Source: a bacterium
GTDB lineage: Bacteria; JADJOY01
Assembly: GCA_046331705.1 (NCBI GenBank)
Contig: JAXLQJ010000012.1
Location: forward strand, 1-64,000
DNA length: 64,000 nucleotides
Direction of reading: 5' to 3'
Under the pieces are notes generated by a model that ran no database searches, had not been told where the DNA came from, and saw only the letters and a list, made by a program, of their open reading frames with translations. A program made the translations under genes and the position numbers. Below are positions 1,896-8,381 of the stretch, in pieces; the first letter of the stretch is position 1, and the number at the start of each line of letters is the position of its first letter.

Positions 1896-2351
1896 ATGGA
1901 CACGCAAGCCATTCAGGCCCTCGCGGCGGAGGCCGTGAAGACGGTCGGCCCGTGGCTGCCGGTGCTGGTCAACAAAGCCGTCGAGAAGACCGGTGAGGCG
2001 ATCCCAGGAAGTGTCGCGAGCGCGTGGAAGGCGCTCGTGGTCCGACTCAAGGGCAAGCCCGAGGTGAGCACCGCCGTGGCCGATCTCGCCGCCAGCAAAG
2101 ACGACGCCGACCTGCAAGCCCAGCTCCGCGTCCAGCTCAAGAAGCTCCTGCTCTCGGATCCCGATCTCGTTCGGGAGCTTGGTGCGGCGCTCGGCCAGGC
2201 GGCGCCGCGCCAAACCCATCAGGTCGCCGTCCAGCACTCGCCGGGCGCCACCGTTGCTTCGGGCGACGGCGCGATCGCGGCGGCGCAGGGCGCAACGGTC
2301 ATCGTGGGCGCAGGTGATCGCGCACGCAGCGGGGACGAGCGCGAGCGATGA
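1896..2351 (+). CDS. Small helical protein (Bell/HeLo-like candidate effector) with C-terminal G/A/T/V-rich motif
   Basis: 151 aa, GGGAG upstream of the ATG, stop overlaps the next start (ATGA). About 100-aa amphipathic helical region, then GATVASGDGAIAAAQGATVI, which recurs in the two downstream genes. Confidence 0.75.
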   Translation: MDTQAIQALAAEAVKTVGPWLPVLVNKAVEKTGEAIPGSVASAWKALVVRLKGKPEVSTAVADLAASKDDADLQAQLRVQLKKLLLSDPDLVRELGAALGQAAPRQTHQVAVQHSPGATVASGDGAIAAAQGATVIVGAGDRARSGDERER

Positions 2352-5209
2352 GCGCCGAACGCGACAAGCAGCTCGCCACCGCCAAGAAGCTCTACGCGTC
2401 CGGCAAGATCTCGGCGAAGCAGTATCAGGCGCTCACGGGCACCCCCGTGCCCGCGGGGCTGAAGCGCCGCCCGTCGCCGCGCGTCCGGGCCGGGAAGGGC
2501 GCCACGGTGGCAGCGGGGGACGGTGCCCGAGCAGCCGCCCGCGACGCCACGATCATCGACCAGGTCCACGGCGACGTGTACGTCGGCAAGCCCGCCAAGA
2601 GCGCCCGCGAGGCGCTCAGGATCTATCGAACGGTTCTCGCCGCCACGACCGGTCAGCTTCCGCTCAGGGGCTTGCTGCCCGGCGCGAGCGACCCGTCCTC
2701 GGCACGACCGCTGCCGCTCGCGGACGTGTACGTGGCGCTCGACACGCGAGGCGGCGAGCCGGGACGAGCGGGCACACCCGACGAATCGGAGATCCTCGAG
2801 TCAGCGCGTCCCGGGCGCGAGCGACAGCGGCCGCTCTCGGTGCTCGCAGCGGTCGCCAAGCACCCTCGGCTGGTGCTGCTGGGCGATCCGGGCTCCGGCA
2901 AGTCCACGTTCTCGAATCATCTGGCGCTCGTGCTCTGCATGCACGCGCTCGAGCCGAAGCAGCGCTGGCTCGATCGGCTACCGCGCTGGCCGAAGGGGCT
3001 GGCGAGTTTGGTTCCGGTGTTGGTCGTGCTCAGGGACTTCGCGGCGGCACTTCCCTCGCCGCTTCCCGAGCGCGCGGTGCCCGAGCACCTCGCGAGTTTC
3101 ATTCGGCGCCGCCTGGCCGAGCAGAAGCTCGCGTTCGCCGGCGCGCCGCTCGAGCGCGCGCTCGACGAAGGCGACGCGCTCGTCGTCTTCGACGGCCTCG
3201 ACGAGCTGCCATCCAAGGATCAACGCCTCTTCGTTCGAGACGCGGTGGCCGCGTTCGTCGCTCGCTTTCCGAAGAGTCGCTACCTGGTCACCTGTCGAAC
3301 GCTCTCCTACCAGCCGCCGCCCACGCCCGAGAACGAGGAGGCCGAACCCGAGCCCGAACCCGATCTCAGGCTCGATCCGAAAGACTTCCCGAGCTTCGAG
3401 ATCGCGCCGCTCGACGACGCCAAGATCCACGGCTTCATCGAGCACTGGTATCGAGAGGTCGCGCGGATCGGCGCCATTGCCACCTCGGGGGTCGCGGGCG
3501 GCATCGCCAAGCTCAGGGTGGCGGTTCAGCGTCGCGATCTCGCCCGCCTTGCGCCCAACCCCCTGCTCTTGACGGTGATGGCATTGGTACACACCCATCA
3601 CGGCGAGCTTCCCGACGCACGCGCACGGCTCTACGAGGAGGCCATCAACATCCTCCTCTGGCGCTGGGACCAGACGCGCCAGGGACGCCGTACGCCGCCG
3701 ATCCGCGAGCGCTTGGCGGACGCGCAGTGCACTGAATCAGACCTGCTGGGAGTGCTGTCGCGACTCGCCTTCGATGTGCACGCCAACGTCGCCGACGCCC
3801 CGGACGGGGAAGCGGTTGCCGACATCGGCGAGCTGGATCTCATCAAGGCGTTGGCGCGGCTCAATCACGGCGACCTCAACTGGGCCGAAGGCCTCGTCGA
3901 AGCCATCAAGCTGCGGGCCGGGCTTTTGGTCGAGCGCCGTGCCGGCGTGTTCGCGTTCCCGCACCGAACCTTCCAGGAGTTCCTCGCTGGTTCGCACCTC
4001 GGCGGGCTCCCCGACTTCGCCGAGCGGAGCACTCGGCTCGTGGCAGCATCACCGATCTGGCGAGAGCCCGTGCTACTCGCCGTCGGGCGCCTCGTGCACG
4101 TCGGACGTGACCGAGAACGGCCGCAGGGTCTCATTGCCAATCTCTGCCCCGAGAGAGTGCGAGACGACGAGGCTGGATGGAAAAAAGTGTGGTTCGCTGG
4201 GGACGTGCTCGGCGAGATCGGCGTTGCGCGGATGCGTGGCACCGAGCTCGGGCAGGATCTCGCGGCGCGGGTTCAGGATCGAGTCGTCGCGCTACTTCGC
4301 GGCGGAAAACTCTCACCCCGCGAGCGCGCGGAAGCCGGCGTGACGCTGACTCGGATCGGCGACCCACGGCAGTCGGTGATGAGCGTCGATGGTCTCGAGC
4401 TGATCGAGATCCCCGCAGGGCCGTTCCTCATGGGCGACGAGTACCACCCGCTCGATCTCCCGAGCTTCCAGATCTCCAAGTTCCCGATCAGCAACGCGCA
4501 ATACGCCGAATTCGTGGAGGCGGGTGGGTACGGCGAAGCGCGCTACTGGAAAGAAGCGATCGCGGCCAAGATCTGGAAGAGCGGCCGGGTGACTGGCTGG
4601 GACGGCGAACCGCGTGATCGACCAAGTCGGTACCGCGTCCCATTCGGGCTCGCGAATCACCCGGTGGTCGGTATCACGTGGTACGAGGCGCTGGCCTTCA
4701 CGCGGTGGCTCACCGAGCGTCGCTGCGAGCTCGGCAAGATGGAGCCGGGTTCCGAAGTGCGTCTCCCCTCCGAGGCCGAATGGGAAAAGGCGGCGCGCGG
4801 CGGCCTCGAGCTTCGGCGCGGGGAACGGAACGACGACCCGAAACGCGAGTACCCGTGGCGGGGTGACATCGATCCGCAGCGTGCGAACTACCGCGACGCC
4901 GGAATCGGCGCCACCAGCGCTGTCGGATGTTTTCCGGGTGGCGCCAGCCCCTACGGAGTCGAGGAGATGAGTGGCAACGTCTGGGAATGGACGCGAAGTG
5001 CGTATCGGGACGTCCCGTACGATCCCGCCGACGGACGCGAGAAGCTCGATCAGCCGCGAAACGTGAGCCGCGTTCTTCGTGGCGGCTCGTACTTCCTCGA
5101 AGCTCCCTACGTTCGTGTCGCGGTCCGCGGCAGGTCCGGACCCGGCGGCCTCTACGGCAGCATCGGTTTTCGGGTGATTGTTTCGTCCCCATCCGACTCT
5201 GGACCCTGA
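2348..5209 (+). CDS. NACHT-type NTPase with C-terminal FGE-sulfatase (SUMF1)/C-type lectin-fold domain (NLR-like protein 1)
   Basis: Walker A GDPGSGKST, Walker B LVVFDGLDE, LVTCR, NPLLL, FPHRTFQEFLA. FGE motifs HPVVGITWYEA, RLPSEAEWEKAARG, MSGNVWEWT, RVLRGGS, IGFRV. Confidence 0.92.
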   Translation: MSAERDKQLATAKKLYASGKISAKQYQALTGTPVPAGLKRRPSPRVRAGKGATVAAGDGARAAARDATIIDQVHGDVYVGKPAKSAREALRIYRTVLAATTGQLPLRGLLPGASDPSSARPLPLADVYVALDTRGGEPGRAGTPDESEILESARPGRERQRPLSVLAAVAKHPRLVLLGDPGSGKSTFSNHLALVLCMHALEPKQRWLDRLPRWPKGLASLVPVLVVLRDFAAALPSPLPERAVPEHLASFIRRRLAEQKLAFAGAPLERALDEGDALVVFDGLDELPSKDQRLFVRDAVAAFVARFPKSRYLVTCRTLSYQPPPTPENEEAEPEPEPDLRLDPKDFPSFEIAPLDDAKIHGFIEHWYREVARIGAIATSGVAGGIAKLRVAVQRRDLARLAPNPLLLTVMALVHTHHGELPDARARLYEEAINILLWRWDQTRQGRRTPPIRERLADAQCTESDLLGVLSRLAFDVHANVADAPDGEAVADIGELDLIKALARLNHGDLNWAEGLVEAIKLRAGLLVERRAGVFAFPHRTFQEFLAGSHLGGLPDFAERSTRLVAASPIWREPVLLAVGRLVHVGRDRERPQGLIANLCPERVRDDEAGWKKVWFAGDVLGEIGVARMRGTELGQDLAARVQDRVVALLRGGKLSPRERAEAGVTLTRIGDPRQSVMSVDGLELIEIPAGPFLMGDEYHPLDLPSFQISKFPISNAQYAEFVEAGGYGEARYWKEAIAAKIWKSGRVTGWDGEPRDRPSRYRVPFGLANHPVVGITWYEALAFTRWLTERRCELGKMEPGSEVRLPSEAEWEKAARGGLELRRGERNDDPKREYPWRGDIDPQRANYRDAGIGATSAVGCFPGGASPYGVEEMSGNVWEWTRSAYRDVPYDPADGREKLDQPRNVSRVLRGGSYFLEAPYVRVAVRGRSGPGGLYGSIGFRVIVSSPSDSGP

Positions 5210-5210
5210 C
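4307..5210 (+). repeat. Copy 1 of a ~0.9-kb dispersed repeat (FGE/CLec domain coding sequence)
   Basis: Colinear with 7481-8382, with offset 3174 before about 7908 and 3172 after about 7935. Long identical stretches include 5028-5090 and 5158-5210. Confidence 0.9.
5078..5209 (+). other. Putative DGR variable region (VR1)
   Basis: Differs from 8250-8381 at 14 positions in 10 codons, all of which change amino acid. Flanked by identical sequence, and lies between RGGS and GFR of a CLec-fold domain. Confidence 0.75.
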
Positions 5211-5227
5211 TCGCGCGAGGATGAGCC

Positions 5228-8200
5228 ATGGCGTTCGATCTGGAGCGGTGGAAGGGGGAGCTGCGCGAGGGGCTCCGGGATTGGCCGGCGAGGATGAAGC
5301 TCGCGGGGGTCACCTCGGTGTATTCGTTTCTGTCCGCGTCGGCGTTGTGGCCCGTCGTGGAGGCGCTGGGGAAGGGTGAGTACTCGGCGATGCTCGCGCT
5401 CGCTGGCGTTGCGGGGAGCGTGGGGACGAATCTGCTGGCCAATCGCATCGAGGCTTGGCGAGGGAAGGCCGAGAACGATGTGGCAGGTGATCTGGAGCGT
5501 GCGCCGATCGAGCCCGAGTTGCGTGAGGCGCTCGACGCGATTCTGAATCAGCTCGGTGCGATCGAAGCCGCGCGTGCGGCAGCGCCTCCGTCCGAATGGG
5601 AGCGCCTGGTGGATCGCTTGGTGCAAGAGCTTCGCGAAGCGGGGAGCGGCGACCGCTTCGACGTCACGGTTGGCGATCATTCGACGGTGGCGGTCGGAAC
5701 GAACGCGATTGCGTTGGCCCGGGGCGCGACGCTCGTTCACGTCGACAACATCGGCCCGGGCGGCCGGGCGGATATCCGCATCGAGAACGACGGCGAGACC
5801 TCGCGTGTCGAGCGGGCGCGTGCGCACTACCTGGAGCGGTTGATCGGTTACTGCACCGCACTCCCGCTTCCGGCGCTCGGTGGCAAGGTGGGGGCGGACG
5901 AGGATCTGAGCCTCGACGATGTCTACGTCCAGCTCGATACGACGACGCGGATCGACGCCGACGGGCGGGTCGTGGGCGATCGGCCGATGAGCCCGGAGGA
6001 CGCGTCGCAGGTGCGGGCTCTCAGCGCTCTCGAAGCAGCGGGCCGAGCAACCCGCCTCGCGATCGTCGGTGGGCCGGGTAGCGGCAAGAGCACGTTCGTG
6101 AAGAGCCTCTTGGTCAAGGTCGCCCGCGCCCAGCTCGGACGTGGCGAGCCACTTGCCGAGTATTCCGCGGAAGACACGCCAGTACTCGTGACCTTGCGCG
6201 AGCTCTCCGACCGGCTGCTGGCAGTGAACACCCACGGCATGTCGGGCGATCGCGAGCGCGCCGCGCTGGCGGGAGCGGTGCGTGAGCTGGTGGAGGCGCA
6301 GGCGACGGCGTGGGAAGCGCCCGAGTTCGCAACGCCCCTCGGACGCGCGCTGACGACGGGCAAGTGCTTGCTGGTCCTCGACGGCCTCGACGAAGTGCCC
6401 GAGGTGACGCGACCGCTGGTTCGCAAGGCGGTGGATGCGGTGCTGCGTCTCTACCGGCCGGCGCGGGTGGTGGTGACTTGCCGCACACGGTCGTATCAAG
6501 GGGAAACACAGATCCCCGACTTCGATCGCCACGAGCTCGCGCCCTTCGACGACGAGAAGATCGAGGCCTTCGTCCGTGCTTGGTATCGGGCCCTGGAGAA
6601 GTGCGGGAAGTTTCTCGCCGACGACGCCCACCGGCGCGAAGCGGATCTGATCGCAGCGGCGGTCCACGATCCGAAGCTCCGAGAGCTGGCCGAGAATCCG
6701 ATGATGCTCACGAGCATCGCGATCATCCATCGCCAGAACGTCACGCTGCCCCGTGAGCGCGTGCGTGTGTACGCGCTGCTCGTCGATTTGCTGTTGCGCC
6801 GCTGGGAAGCCGAGCGTACCGGCCTCACGCCAGTGGATGCCGCCGCCGTGCCGGACAGGCTCACGGCGCTCTTGGCGGAGCCGGCCAAGCTGCGCGAGGT
6901 CGTCGAAGAGCTCGCCTTCGCCGCGCACGGCGGCGGCGCCAGCGGCGCACTCGCGGAGCTGACGCGCTCCGCTGCTCGGGAGCTGCTGGAGCGAAAGGAG
7001 TGCCTCGGCGATGTCGCGCTGGCCGAGGCGTTCTTGAGCTACATCGATTTCCGCGCCGGGCTCCTGAGCGGCTTGGGTGGCGAGGCGAGCCAACCGGCCG
7101 TCTATCGCTTCCCCCACCAGACGCTGCAGGAGTATCTGGCCGGCTGTCGGCTGCTGCGGGGGCTCACCAGCACGCGCGTTCGCCAGATCTTCGACAGTGC
7201 CAAGGGTGACGAGCGGTGGCGAATTCCGGTGCGCTTTGCCGCCGAGGAGCTGCTGCACAACACGCCGCGCAACGGCGATCTCGAGCTGATCGAGCTGGCG
7301 CGCTCCCTCGCGGGCACGCGGGAGGATTCGAGCGTCGAGTCACAGCGCGCGCGTCTCTGGGCGGGCGAGATGGTGGCGCTTCTCGGCGCCGAACGCGTCT
7401 CGAGCGACACGTCAGGTCCTGTGGACGGCGCGAAGTTCCTCGGCGAGACCCGGACAAACCTCGTTCGGCTGCTCGGAAGCAAGCTCGGCCCCATCGAGCG
7501 AGCCGACGCTGGCGTTGCTCTGGCGCGAATCGGTGACTCGCGAAGGGCGGTGATGAGCGTCGATCGCCTGGAGCTGGTCGAGGTTCCTGCTGGACCGTTC
7601 CTGATGGGAGACCGGTATCAGCGGCTCGATCTCCCGCGCTTCTGGATCTCCAAGTTCCCCATCACCAACGCGCAGTACGCCGCGTTCGTGGAGGCAGGTG
7701 GATACGGCGACCCGCGCTACTGGAAAGAGGCGATTGCGGCCAAGGCCTGGAAGGACGGACGGGTGACCGGCTGGGATGAGGAGTCACGCGATCGACCACG
7801 TCAGTTCCGCGTCCCATTCGGGCTCGCGAATCACCCGGTGGTCGGTGTGACCTGGTACGAGGCGCTGGCCTTCACGCGGTGGCTCACCGAGCACCGGCGC
7901 GCACTCGGAAGCTCTCACCCGAGGGCGAGGTGCATTGCCATCGGAAGCAGAGTGGGAGAAGGCGGCGCGCGGCGGCCTCGAGCTCGCGCCGGGGAAGCCG
8001 AACGAAGACCCGAAGCGCGAGTTCCCGTGGCTGGGAGCCATCGATCCCCAGCGCGCGAACTACGACGACACCGGAATCGGCGCCACCAGCGCCGCCGGAT
8101 GCTTCCCGGGTGGCGCCAGCCCCTATGGCATCGAAGACCTGAGCGGCAACGTCTGGGAATGGACGCGAAGCGCGTACCGGGGTCTTCCCTACGATCCCAC

Positions 8201-8381
8201 CGACGGACGCGAGAAGCTCGATCAGCCGCGAAACGTGAGCCGCGTTCTTCGTGGCGGCTCGTTCTTCAACGCTGCTCCCTTCGTTCGTGTCGCGGCCCGC
8301 GGCAGGAACGGACCCGCCTACCTCGACGTCAGCATCGGTTTTCGGGTGATTGTTTCGTCCCCATCCGACTCTGGACCCTGA
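5228..8381 (+). CDS. NACHT-type NTPase with N-terminal helical domain and C-terminal FGE/CLec domain (NLR-like protein 2), interrupted by two 1-nt deletions near 7908-7935
   Basis: GGPGSGKST, LLVLDGLDE, VVTCR, NPMML, FPHQTLQEYLA. The FGE domain continues through two frame changes (KLSPEGEV, then LPSEAEWEKAARG...IGFRVIVSSPSDSGP, stop 8381). The tail of the 1200-aa ORF to 8830 is out of frame. Confidence 0.85.

Follow-up and report, generated by a model that had tools for sequence, protein, structure and literature searches.

A short motif shared by a candidate Bell-type effector and two adjacent NACHT receptors in an uncultured bacterium of the JADJOY01 lineage

Three neighboring genes near the start of contig JAXLQJ010000012.1 (GenBank assembly GCA_046331705.1; lineage JADJOY01) raise a simple question: why does a small protein carry at its C terminus the same motif of about 20 residues that precedes the NACHT domain in each of the two large proteins encoded behind it? 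The window analyzed here is the stretch from position 1 to 64,000 of that contig; we call the two large proteins NACHT1 (N1) and NACHT2 (N2), the shared core motif of ∼20 residues the tag, and the host genome G000. We find that the similarity of the tags is above chance and that the small protein belongs to a family whose members often adjoin tag-sharing receptor genes. On balance we read the locus as a receptor-executioner operon of the Bell/BASS type (BASS, bacterial amyloid signaling sequence), in which a sensor domain would bind a ligand, the NACHT proteins would oligomerize, their tags would template the tag of the small protein, and a helix of its Bell domain would be freed.

The three genes lie head to tail on the plus strand (1896 through 2351, 2348 through 5209, and 5228 onward), with the following features.

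1896 to 2351, plus strand: small gene, 151 aa (P0001), with a Bell-like helical domain and a C-terminal tag; an open reading frame (ORF) in the frame with the highest GC content at third codon positions (GC3).
1896 to 2195, plus strand: predicted helical domain, residues 1 through 100, starting Met-Asp; from AlphaFold2 and conserved residues.
2229 to 2315, plus strand: tag copy 1, small-protein residues ∼112 through 140 (core 2244 to 2303); from the sequence and leave-one-out profiles.
2348 to 5209, plus strand: NACHT1 gene, 953 aa (P0002), with a 50-aa leader, tag, linker, NACHT NTPase, and C-terminal domain of the formylglycine-generating enzyme (FGE)-sulfatase type; from Pfam.
2498 to 2587, plus strand: tag copy 2, NACHT1 residues 51 through 80 including DQVHGDVYVG; from the sequence and local alignment.
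5228 to 8381, plus strand: NACHT2 gene (P0003), a NACHT1 paralog with an N-terminal domain, tag, NACHT, and FGE-sulfatase domain, frame broken; from Pfam and BLASTP.
5228 to 5677, plus strand: NACHT2 N-terminal domain, 150 aa, of no known family; coding supported by GC3.
5678 to 5767, plus strand: tag copy 3, NACHT2 residues 151 through 180; from the sequence and local alignment.
7906 to 7935, plus strand: frame breaks inside the NACHT2 FGE domain, where the frame starting at 5228 passes into that of 7851.

The genes are tightly coupled and collinear: the TGA stop of the small gene overlaps the ATG of NACHT1 (ATGA), and NACHT2 starts 18 nt past the NACHT1 stop with GAGGA ahead of its ATG. GGGAG stands 6 nt ahead of the ATG of the small gene. 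By GC3 each of the three frames is supported as coding, as are the opening 150 codons of NACHT2; scans for tRNAs, promoters, and terminators gave nothing useful.

The tag reads GATVASGDGAIAAAQGATVI in the small protein (2244 through 2303), GATVAAGDGARAAARDATII in NACHT1 (2498 through 2557), and HSTVAVGTNAIALARGATLV in NACHT2 (5678 through 5737). The translations and a script agree with the preliminary description on these positions and on the identities to the small-protein copy (15/20 for N1 and 11/20 for N2, both exact), and the segment DQVHGDVYVG that it placed directly behind the N1 copy is present in the translation; the N1 and N2 copies are identical at 10 of 20 positions. Its claim that the small protein and N1 are conserved at the protein level is borne out by the DNA, which is identical at 42/60 positions: 12 of the 18 differences fall on third codon positions (binomial P = 0.004 for at least 12 of 18 at an expectation of 1/3), and the codon differences are 10 synonymous and 5 nonsynonymous. 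The motif is somewhat longer than its 20-residue core, as a Val five residues upstream is common to all three copies, and hydrophobic segments of five residues alternate with G/D/N turns. Inside every copy a half-repeat, [GDH][AS]T[VIL].., occurs twice (GATVASGD...GATVIVGAGD, 2244 through 2315; GATVAAGD...DATIIDQVHGD, 2498 through 2575; HSTVAVGTN...GATLVHVDN, 5678 through 5767), a pattern that points to two short rungs, or else a hairpin, in each tag.

The chance background was every 20-mer of the 77,480 six-frame ORFs (at least 50 aa) in the 8.17-Mb, 70% GC genome. A 15/20 match to the small-protein copy occurs once genome-wide, in N1. Matches of 11/20 occur at four places (N2, the motif ahead of the NACHT domain in a paralogous protein of contig C43 with TIR-NACHT-FGE architecture, and two frames rich in Ala and Gly), and the 11/20 of N2 on its own is therefore not beyond chance. 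Leave-one-out profiles built from N1 and N2 return the small protein as the best nontraining match (E = 1.2e-4), and those built from the small protein and N2 return N1 in the same way (E = 0.059); with the profile of the small protein and N1, N2 is absent from the top six matches. The N2 copy sits at the position homologous to the N1 copy in the BLASTP alignment of the two paralogs. Composition-adjusted BLASTP gives the tag match of the small protein to N1 a low rating (12.3 bits), so the case for tag sharing rests on the genome-wide scans and on context. In local alignments the tail of the small protein scores 75 against N1 and 60 against N2, whereas 56 foreign N termini, taken from NOD-like receptors (NLRs) adjoining homologous small proteins elsewhere, average 24 and peak at 39; z-scores against shuffles are 7 to 8 (7.2 for the small-protein tail against N2). 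The similarity of the tags is thus above chance.

The small protein starts MD(TQ)AIQALAAEAV... with a hydrophobic first helix. The AlphaFold2 model, computed from a 67-sequence alignment, predicts five helices (residues 3 through 25, 38 through 51, 55 through 66, 71 through 87, and 89 through 99), with a predicted local distance difference test (pLDDT) value of ∼64 to 86 over residues 1 through 100. M1 and D2 are invariant in five close homologs, and most of the 67 aligned sequences begin with MD; the residues conserved in the family are M1/D2, P19, L21, P22, L24, and W44, and within the tag G123 (the G of “ASG”) is conserved in at least 90% of the 67 aligned members. In the available text of Dyrka et al. 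(2020, 10.1101/2020.01.06.895854) the Bell domain is a five-helix bundle with an acidic residue at position 2 or 3, found in proteins of 120 to 140 aa, and the available text on the Bab protein describes four helices that cup helix 1 (Ibarlosa et al. 2024, 10.1101/2024.11.07.622273). The predicted domain agrees with this description: it is all-helical, has five helices in ∼100 residues at the N terminus of a short protein (here 151 aa), and opens with a hydrophobic helix that carries an acidic residue at position 2 (D2). The small protein thus appears to carry the published hallmarks of the Bell domain, its membership being assigned by these described features and by the gene context of its homologs. 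No model of Pfam, NCBIfam, or PADLOC matches it or its 67 aligned relatives, and a PDB fold search with the predicted model gave no matches at E ≤ 0.001, returning generic helical bundles only. A prediction of the complex with two copies each of N1 residues 36 through 95 and small-protein residues 100 through 151, run without controls, scored 0.02, a value that counts neither for nor against an interaction.

A 151-aa protein that is 96% identical (P0004) is known from another assembly. At positions 2119 through 2124, inside the small gene, contigs of two public runs (X1 and X7) gain a G and, close by, lose one base; these compensating indels alter one or two codons and match a Q-to-A difference in P0004.

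Is a small protein of this kind regularly found beside a tag-sharing receptor? A profile search against 1.84 billion representatives (E ≤ 0.001) places it in a family of 2276 representative clusters, mostly of 130 to 160 aa, with a few members fused into proteins of 548 to 1030 aa. A scan of one genome per species gave 79 loci from Nostoc and other Cyanobacteria, Streptomyces, Nonomuraea, Chloroflexota, Acidobacteriota, and others, 71 of them with a usable tail; a partner was defined as an ORF of at least 300 aa with a Walker A motif within ∼7 kb whose region ahead of the P-loop shares the tail motif at a score of at least 40. Motif pairs in neighboring genes, for which the preliminary description proposed a scan, are present at 44/71 of these loci. 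The partners carry NB-ARC in 37/44 cases and TPR in 38/44, and FGE-sulfatase is not among their 25 commonest families; none of the 44 loci has two tag-sharing ORFs. The motifs vary between lineages and match within loci, and a motif unique to its locus has its cognate partner in first or second place among 57. One motif is shared by the numerous Nostoc loci, and in a group of Nostoc-type tails no match to the neighbor appears. Tails of the SLNAQSYDESIQINTAG... type occur at loci L054, L057, L061, L065 through L068, L070, L076, and L078 (Nostoc, Nodularia, and Calothrix), where the downstream Walker A protein has its P-loop at residue 29 through 53 and no tag match.

The commonest tail among 149 representatives, labeled type A here (ASG[DE]RSVAIGG..GSTIxTGD), accounts for 39/149 under the strict pattern and 58/149 under a loose anchor, the loose set including a second kind labeled type B (GxGAIAQGxGAVAAG); both labels belong to our own analysis.

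In NACHT1, Pfam identifies FGE-sulfatase (4.2e-49, residues 684 through 944) and a NACHT domain (9.1e-6) whose 26.0 bits lie just below the gathering cutoff of 26.7 bits; AAA_16 and the P-loop GDPGSGKST support the assignment. NACHT2 has a NACHT match of 1.6e-9, the first half of FGE (profile positions 4 through 110; 3.5e-16) in the frame starting at 5228, and the second half (110 through 254; 5.9e-27) in the frame of 7851 through 8378. A NACHT P-loop NTPase followed by FGE-sulfatase (FGS) is thus the architecture of P0002 and, across two frames, of P0003. The two proteins are 40% identical overall, whereas the last 890 nt of their genes (4321 through 5209 and 7495 through 8381) are 84% identical in DNA, far above the rest, which suggests that the sensor domain was exchanged recently by gene conversion. 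Template repeats of a diversity-generating retroelement were sought in the genome with the FGE ends; only four paralogs match, with no extra template-like copy.

Between the breaks in NACHT2 (∼7906 through 7935) a third frame reads like NACHT1, and two single bases therefore seem to be missing from the assembly; an additional G follows 7906 in contigs of the X1 and X7 runs. In the population the NACHT2 gene is probably unbroken, and the frame breaks are either an assembly error or a strain-specific pseudogene.

The regions ahead of the receptor tags differ. Residues 8 through 29 of the NACHT1 leader (window 2369 through 2434) contain KLYASGKISAKQYQAL, for which Pfam returns nothing at E ≤ 1 and which, judged by eye, we take to recall a short oligomerization motif of the SHOCT type. 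The N-terminal domain of NACHT2 has no Pfam match and no homolog in the five other genomes of the phylum set; it is possibly a helical domain of effector type. Feature matches in an atlas point to proteins of 141 aa (0.97) and, at values under 0.9, to NNH2/NNH5 clusters, which we treat as leads only. A Bell domain was also considered for this region and rejected, since hhalign to the Bell profile gave a probability of only 7%.

The gene order and coupling, the sharing of the tag, the homology of the small-protein family, and the receptor domains have direct support. Joined with the Bell/BASS model, they lead to a scheme that we consider rather probable. The small protein would be the executioner, with a predicted five-helix Bell-like domain of ∼100 residues and a disordered tail bearing a tag of 24 to 30 residues, and its N-terminal helix would attack the membrane once released; NACHT1 and NACHT2 would be the receptors, with the lectin-fold, “antigen-receptor-type” FGE-sulfatase domain as the sensor. 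A ligand on the sensor would make the NACHT modules oligomerize, which would gather several receptor tags; these would take a stacked β-fold (cross-β, β-arch) and template the tag of the small protein, and this conversion would free Bell helix 1 and lead to cell death. The operon would probably serve in anti-phage defense or regulated cell death, as an NLR-type conflict system. We infer the amyloid fold and the templating, as well as the membrane attack, the trigger, and the defense role, the amyloid step because of the relatives and of the strand/turn pattern.

Several observations weigh against this scheme. BASS motifs are described as rich in Q, N, G, V, and I and poor in K, P, and L; the three 20-mers together contain Ala 20/60, Gly 10/60, Asn plus Gln 2/60, Leu 2, and neither Lys nor Pro, so that they are Ala-rich and nearly devoid of Asn/Gln, unlike the described enrichment, and the Ala-rich center of the tag could equally well be helical. 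The AlphaFold2 model gives the tail no structure (pLDDT <50 for residues 102 through 146, disordered). In the receptors the tag lies behind a 50-residue leader (N1 residues 51 through 70) or a 150-residue domain (N2), whereas the receptor-side match of other pairs mostly starts at ORF offset 4 to 26 (0-based). The first 170 residues of NACHT1 match only themselves among 5.8 billion proteins, and the closest homologs of the small protein other than its 96% twin are only 39 to 45% identical; for these two reasons covariation of the pair is not demonstrable for this tag variant. The reading frame of NACHT2 is broken in the assembly. Finally, gapless profiles of 44 type-A and 9 type-B tails from other genomes miss the tags (2 to 9.5 bits over whole sequences; the best single stretches, 7.1 and 8.1 bits, are both in the small protein), and in a genome search with them the small protein ranks 56th of 185 matches (E = 25).

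Some of these points would be accommodated if the partners and their wiring were as proposed and the tag were a homotypic docking peptide of non-amyloid nature that recruits the small protein stoichiometrically, without templating. A strand or helix might, for example, be added to the N termini of oligomerized receptors, like the effector-associated adaptor domains of other systems of signal transduction ATPases with numerous domains (STAND). The Ala-rich, N/Q-poor composition would suit such a peptide, as would its retention between domains, like a linker module, in receptors with an N-terminal domain of their own (N2 and the TIR fusion on C43), and its fixed distance from the P-loop in all four NACHT-FGE paralogs of the genome. 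We nevertheless consider docking without templating unlikely, though not negligible: the nearest related tails come from a family for which the available source text reports prion behavior and fibrils in some motif classes, the alternation of hydrophobic segments with Gly/Asp turns and the internal half-repeat fit a β-arch, and the tail is disordered, not helical, in the monomer model.

A different division of labor can also be conceived, in which the small protein is a regulator or decoy: capping between its tag and the receptor tags, in either direction, would keep the NLRs inactive until they are triggered, and the killing would be done by another part such as the N-terminal domain of NACHT2. 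That domain, 150 aa placed ahead of the tag, would supply NACHT2 with an output of its own, and NACHT1 has no recognizable effector domain. The small protein itself carries the Bell hallmarks (a hydrophobic first helix starting Met-Asp and a five-helix domain), and among the related partners 37/44 are NB-ARC proteins with no effector beyond a short tag-bearing N terminus (Walker A at ∼85 to 100); as these partners lack an effector of their own, the small protein is the only candidate output in the NB-ARC pairs. A regulator or decoy is, on this evidence, quite improbable.

Could the tag play no role in signaling and simply remain from a partial duplication or a recombination event that involved the 5′ part of an NLR gene and the 3′ end of the small gene? 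Recombination is active at the locus, as the receptors have exchanged sequence over their last 890 nt. The divergence of the small/N1 DNA (42/60) with its excess of synonymous over nonsynonymous codon differences points to long divergence under purifying selection, and the sharing between effector tail and receptor head recurs at the 44/71 related loci with quite different tags; we regard a remnant of this kind as very improbable. That low-complexity stretches rich in Ala and Gly resemble each other by chance in a genome of 70% GC, as the 12.3 bits of BLASTP and the two unrelated Ala/Gly-rich frames that equal N2's 11/20 might hint, is scarcely credible in view of the genome-wide uniqueness of the 15/20 match, the leave-one-out E-values, the z-scores, and the consistent positions of the tag relative to domain borders in four paralogs.

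Returning to the Bell/BASS-type operon, is its tag a new motif? The preliminary description put it forward as a candidate new one, and this is half right: gapless profiles of the common tail miss it (7 to 9 bits), and a gapped alignment to type A is significant. In that alignment, judged against 60 shuffles of the query, the small-protein tail meets the type-A tail with one 3-residue gap at a score of 64, whereas the shuffles have a mean maximum of 44 and a top of 59, 0/60 reaching 64. The N1 tag aligns best to type-B tails (56, reached by 1/60 shuffles) and the N2 tag to type A (49, reached by 4/60), and the type-B profile finds the C43 paralog at E = 0.011. The tag thus seems to derive from the family's commonest tail, being Ala-rich and three residues shorter, in a version that by its sequence appears private to this organism. 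Neither the text of Dyrka et al. (2020) nor those of the PCFG paper, the Prion review, the ASMscan paper, and the fungal NLR paper spell out motif letters for BASS1, 2, or 4 through 11, the motifs being shown as logos. A search for the S. coelicolor BASS1 protein, begun with a Streptomyces homolog, yielded 15 proteins, and S. coelicolor was not among their sources. As this case shows, catalogs built on profiles overlook known tags in shortened, GC-biased form.

Four NACHT-FGE paralogs are encoded in the genome, each carrying a related tag ∼120 to 135 residues ahead of Walker A; a fifth, more distant NACHT (contig C66) has no tag. Two of the four are adjacent genes on contig C43 (∼7177 through 13782; locus L090: 1175 through 4018 and 4112 through 7717, minus strand). 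One encodes a 1201-aa TIR_2-NACHT-FGE-sulfatase protein with a weak match to the Bell profile and an GSGVIAQGKGAIAAGPGAVVIGG-type tag before the NACHT domain, the other a NACHT-FGE protein of 947 aa whose related tag lies close to its N terminus; the tail of the small protein scores 55 and 49 against these two tags, below the 75 and 60 of its own receptors. The same cluster of a TIR-NACHT-FGE and a NACHT-FGE gene is present in a relative (G005, contig C90). The tag might then act as a shared “bus,” one private tag family linking the four NACHT-FGE sensors to three outputs (the Bell protein encoded on its own, the 150-aa domain at the NACHT2 N terminus, and the TIR domain of the C43 paralog), such that activation of any sensor could template the others and fire several effectors. 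We hold both the bus and its assignment of outputs to be doubtful; were it so, it would be a multireceptor, multieffector amyloid network in a candidate phylum of which six genomes are known and which is not known for multicellularity.

A Bell-like region also occurs outside NLR context: on contig C56 (∼37716 through 38549; locus L089: 7717 through 8550, minus strand) a 277-aa protein joins MshEN (1.1e-15) to a C-terminal Bell-like region without a tag-bearing tail, and such MshEN plus Bell-like proteins are found in all six genomes of the phylum set and at loci L003, L004, L006, and L009.

Both the class-level and the phylum-level search sets around the genome hold only six genomes, and the lineage is therefore very sparsely sampled. 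The locus is absent from the other five (74 to 100% complete), which give only paralog-level DNA matches of ∼70% identity. The stretch is present in 20 activated-sludge, wastewater, or digester runs from 13 studies, and contigs of one metatranscriptome cover portions of the small gene and of NACHT1 as well as the NACHT2 end, at most a weak hint of expression.

Directly downstream of NACHT2 lie a gene for a protein with Schlafen/AlbA_2 and HATPase_c_4 (8566 through 9750) and one for a ParA/AAA_31-type ATPase (9747 through 10757), which overlap by 4 nt, followed by an OmpR-like regulator region (called by eye) and a HAMP-HisKA-HATPase_c kinase (11961 through 13514). The GC content is ∼0.66 to 0.72 over positions 1 through 11000, compared with 0.71 to 0.76 further on.

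How does the locus compare with known systems? Bell/BASS-NLR gene pairs occur in Actinobacteria, Cyanobacteria, Chloroflexota, and some Archaea, according to the available text of Dyrka et al. (2020, 10.1101/2020.01.06.895854). The locus resembles the pairs described there in having a small protein (∼120 to 150 aa) whose helical domain of ∼100 residues opens with a hydrophobic helix and is acidic at position 2, and in a motif of 20 to 30 residues placed at the C terminus of that protein and before the nucleotide-oligomerization domain (NOD) of an overlapping, collinear gene, and the small protein of the window is a sequence homolog of proteins in such pairs. The layout of effector C terminus and receptor N terminus that the preliminary description called established is indeed the published Bell/BASS-NLR one, and homologs of the small protein adjoin motif-sharing NB-ARC/TPR genes in taxa named by that paper; at the present locus the same short motif stands at the effector C terminus and toward the N terminus of the adjacent collinear NLR. 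The NLRs defined in that work combine NB-ARC or NACHT with TPR or WD repeats; here NACHT is present and the C terminus is FGE-sulfatase, a departure that concerns the search definition of the paper and not the general STAND/NLR concept. Unlike the related Bell pairs, the receptors here are NACHT plus FGE-sulfatase proteins instead of NB-ARC/TPR proteins (37 to 38 of 44), there are two of them per effector (0/44 among those pairs), the tag is Ala-rich and ∼3 residues shorter than the common tail, and the host is an uncultured member of a lineage with a six-genome phylum-level search set.

In Escherichia coli ECOR25, the Bab/Agp system (BASS11) ties amyloid signaling by a Bell-related protein to phage defense (Ibarlosa et al. 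2024, 10.1101/2024.11.07.622273). [quoted passage not shown] In the fungal HET-S/NWD2 and HELLP/PNT1 systems, as the available text has it, an N-terminal NLR motif templates the C-terminal prion-forming motif of an adjacent membrane-targeting helical executioner (PMC7889193). The likeness lies in the N-terminal NLR motif and the C-terminal motif of a neighboring helical protein, read here from the genes; there is no sequence relation, and the fungal effectors with HET-s-related amyloid motifs (HRAMs) have two full pseudorepeats, whereas there is one tag with an internal half-repeat here. Bacterial NACHT proteins with “antigen-receptor-type” FGS/FGE C termini are described in the available text of Kibby et al. 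(2022, 10.1101/2022.07.19.500537) and PMC13581612, and the receptors of the window share with them a NACHT module followed by an FGE-sulfatase-type sensor domain. These descriptions include neither a Bell partner nor a shared tag; the words “amyloid” and “Bell” occur 0 times in the available text of either source.

Bell/BASS pairs and NACHT-FGE receptors are thus already known, and the locus opens no new kind of mechanism; particular to it are the two receptors per effector, the N2 domain ahead of the tag, the shortened Ala-rich tag, and the lineage. If the tags template each other, amyloid-type NLR signaling would extend to NACHT receptors with lectin-fold (FGE) sensors and to a barely known bacterial lineage that is common in activated sludge. 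The locus would then also offer a natural case of near-identical sensors with different N-terminal modules and one executioner, useful for the study of tag specificity and cross-talk.

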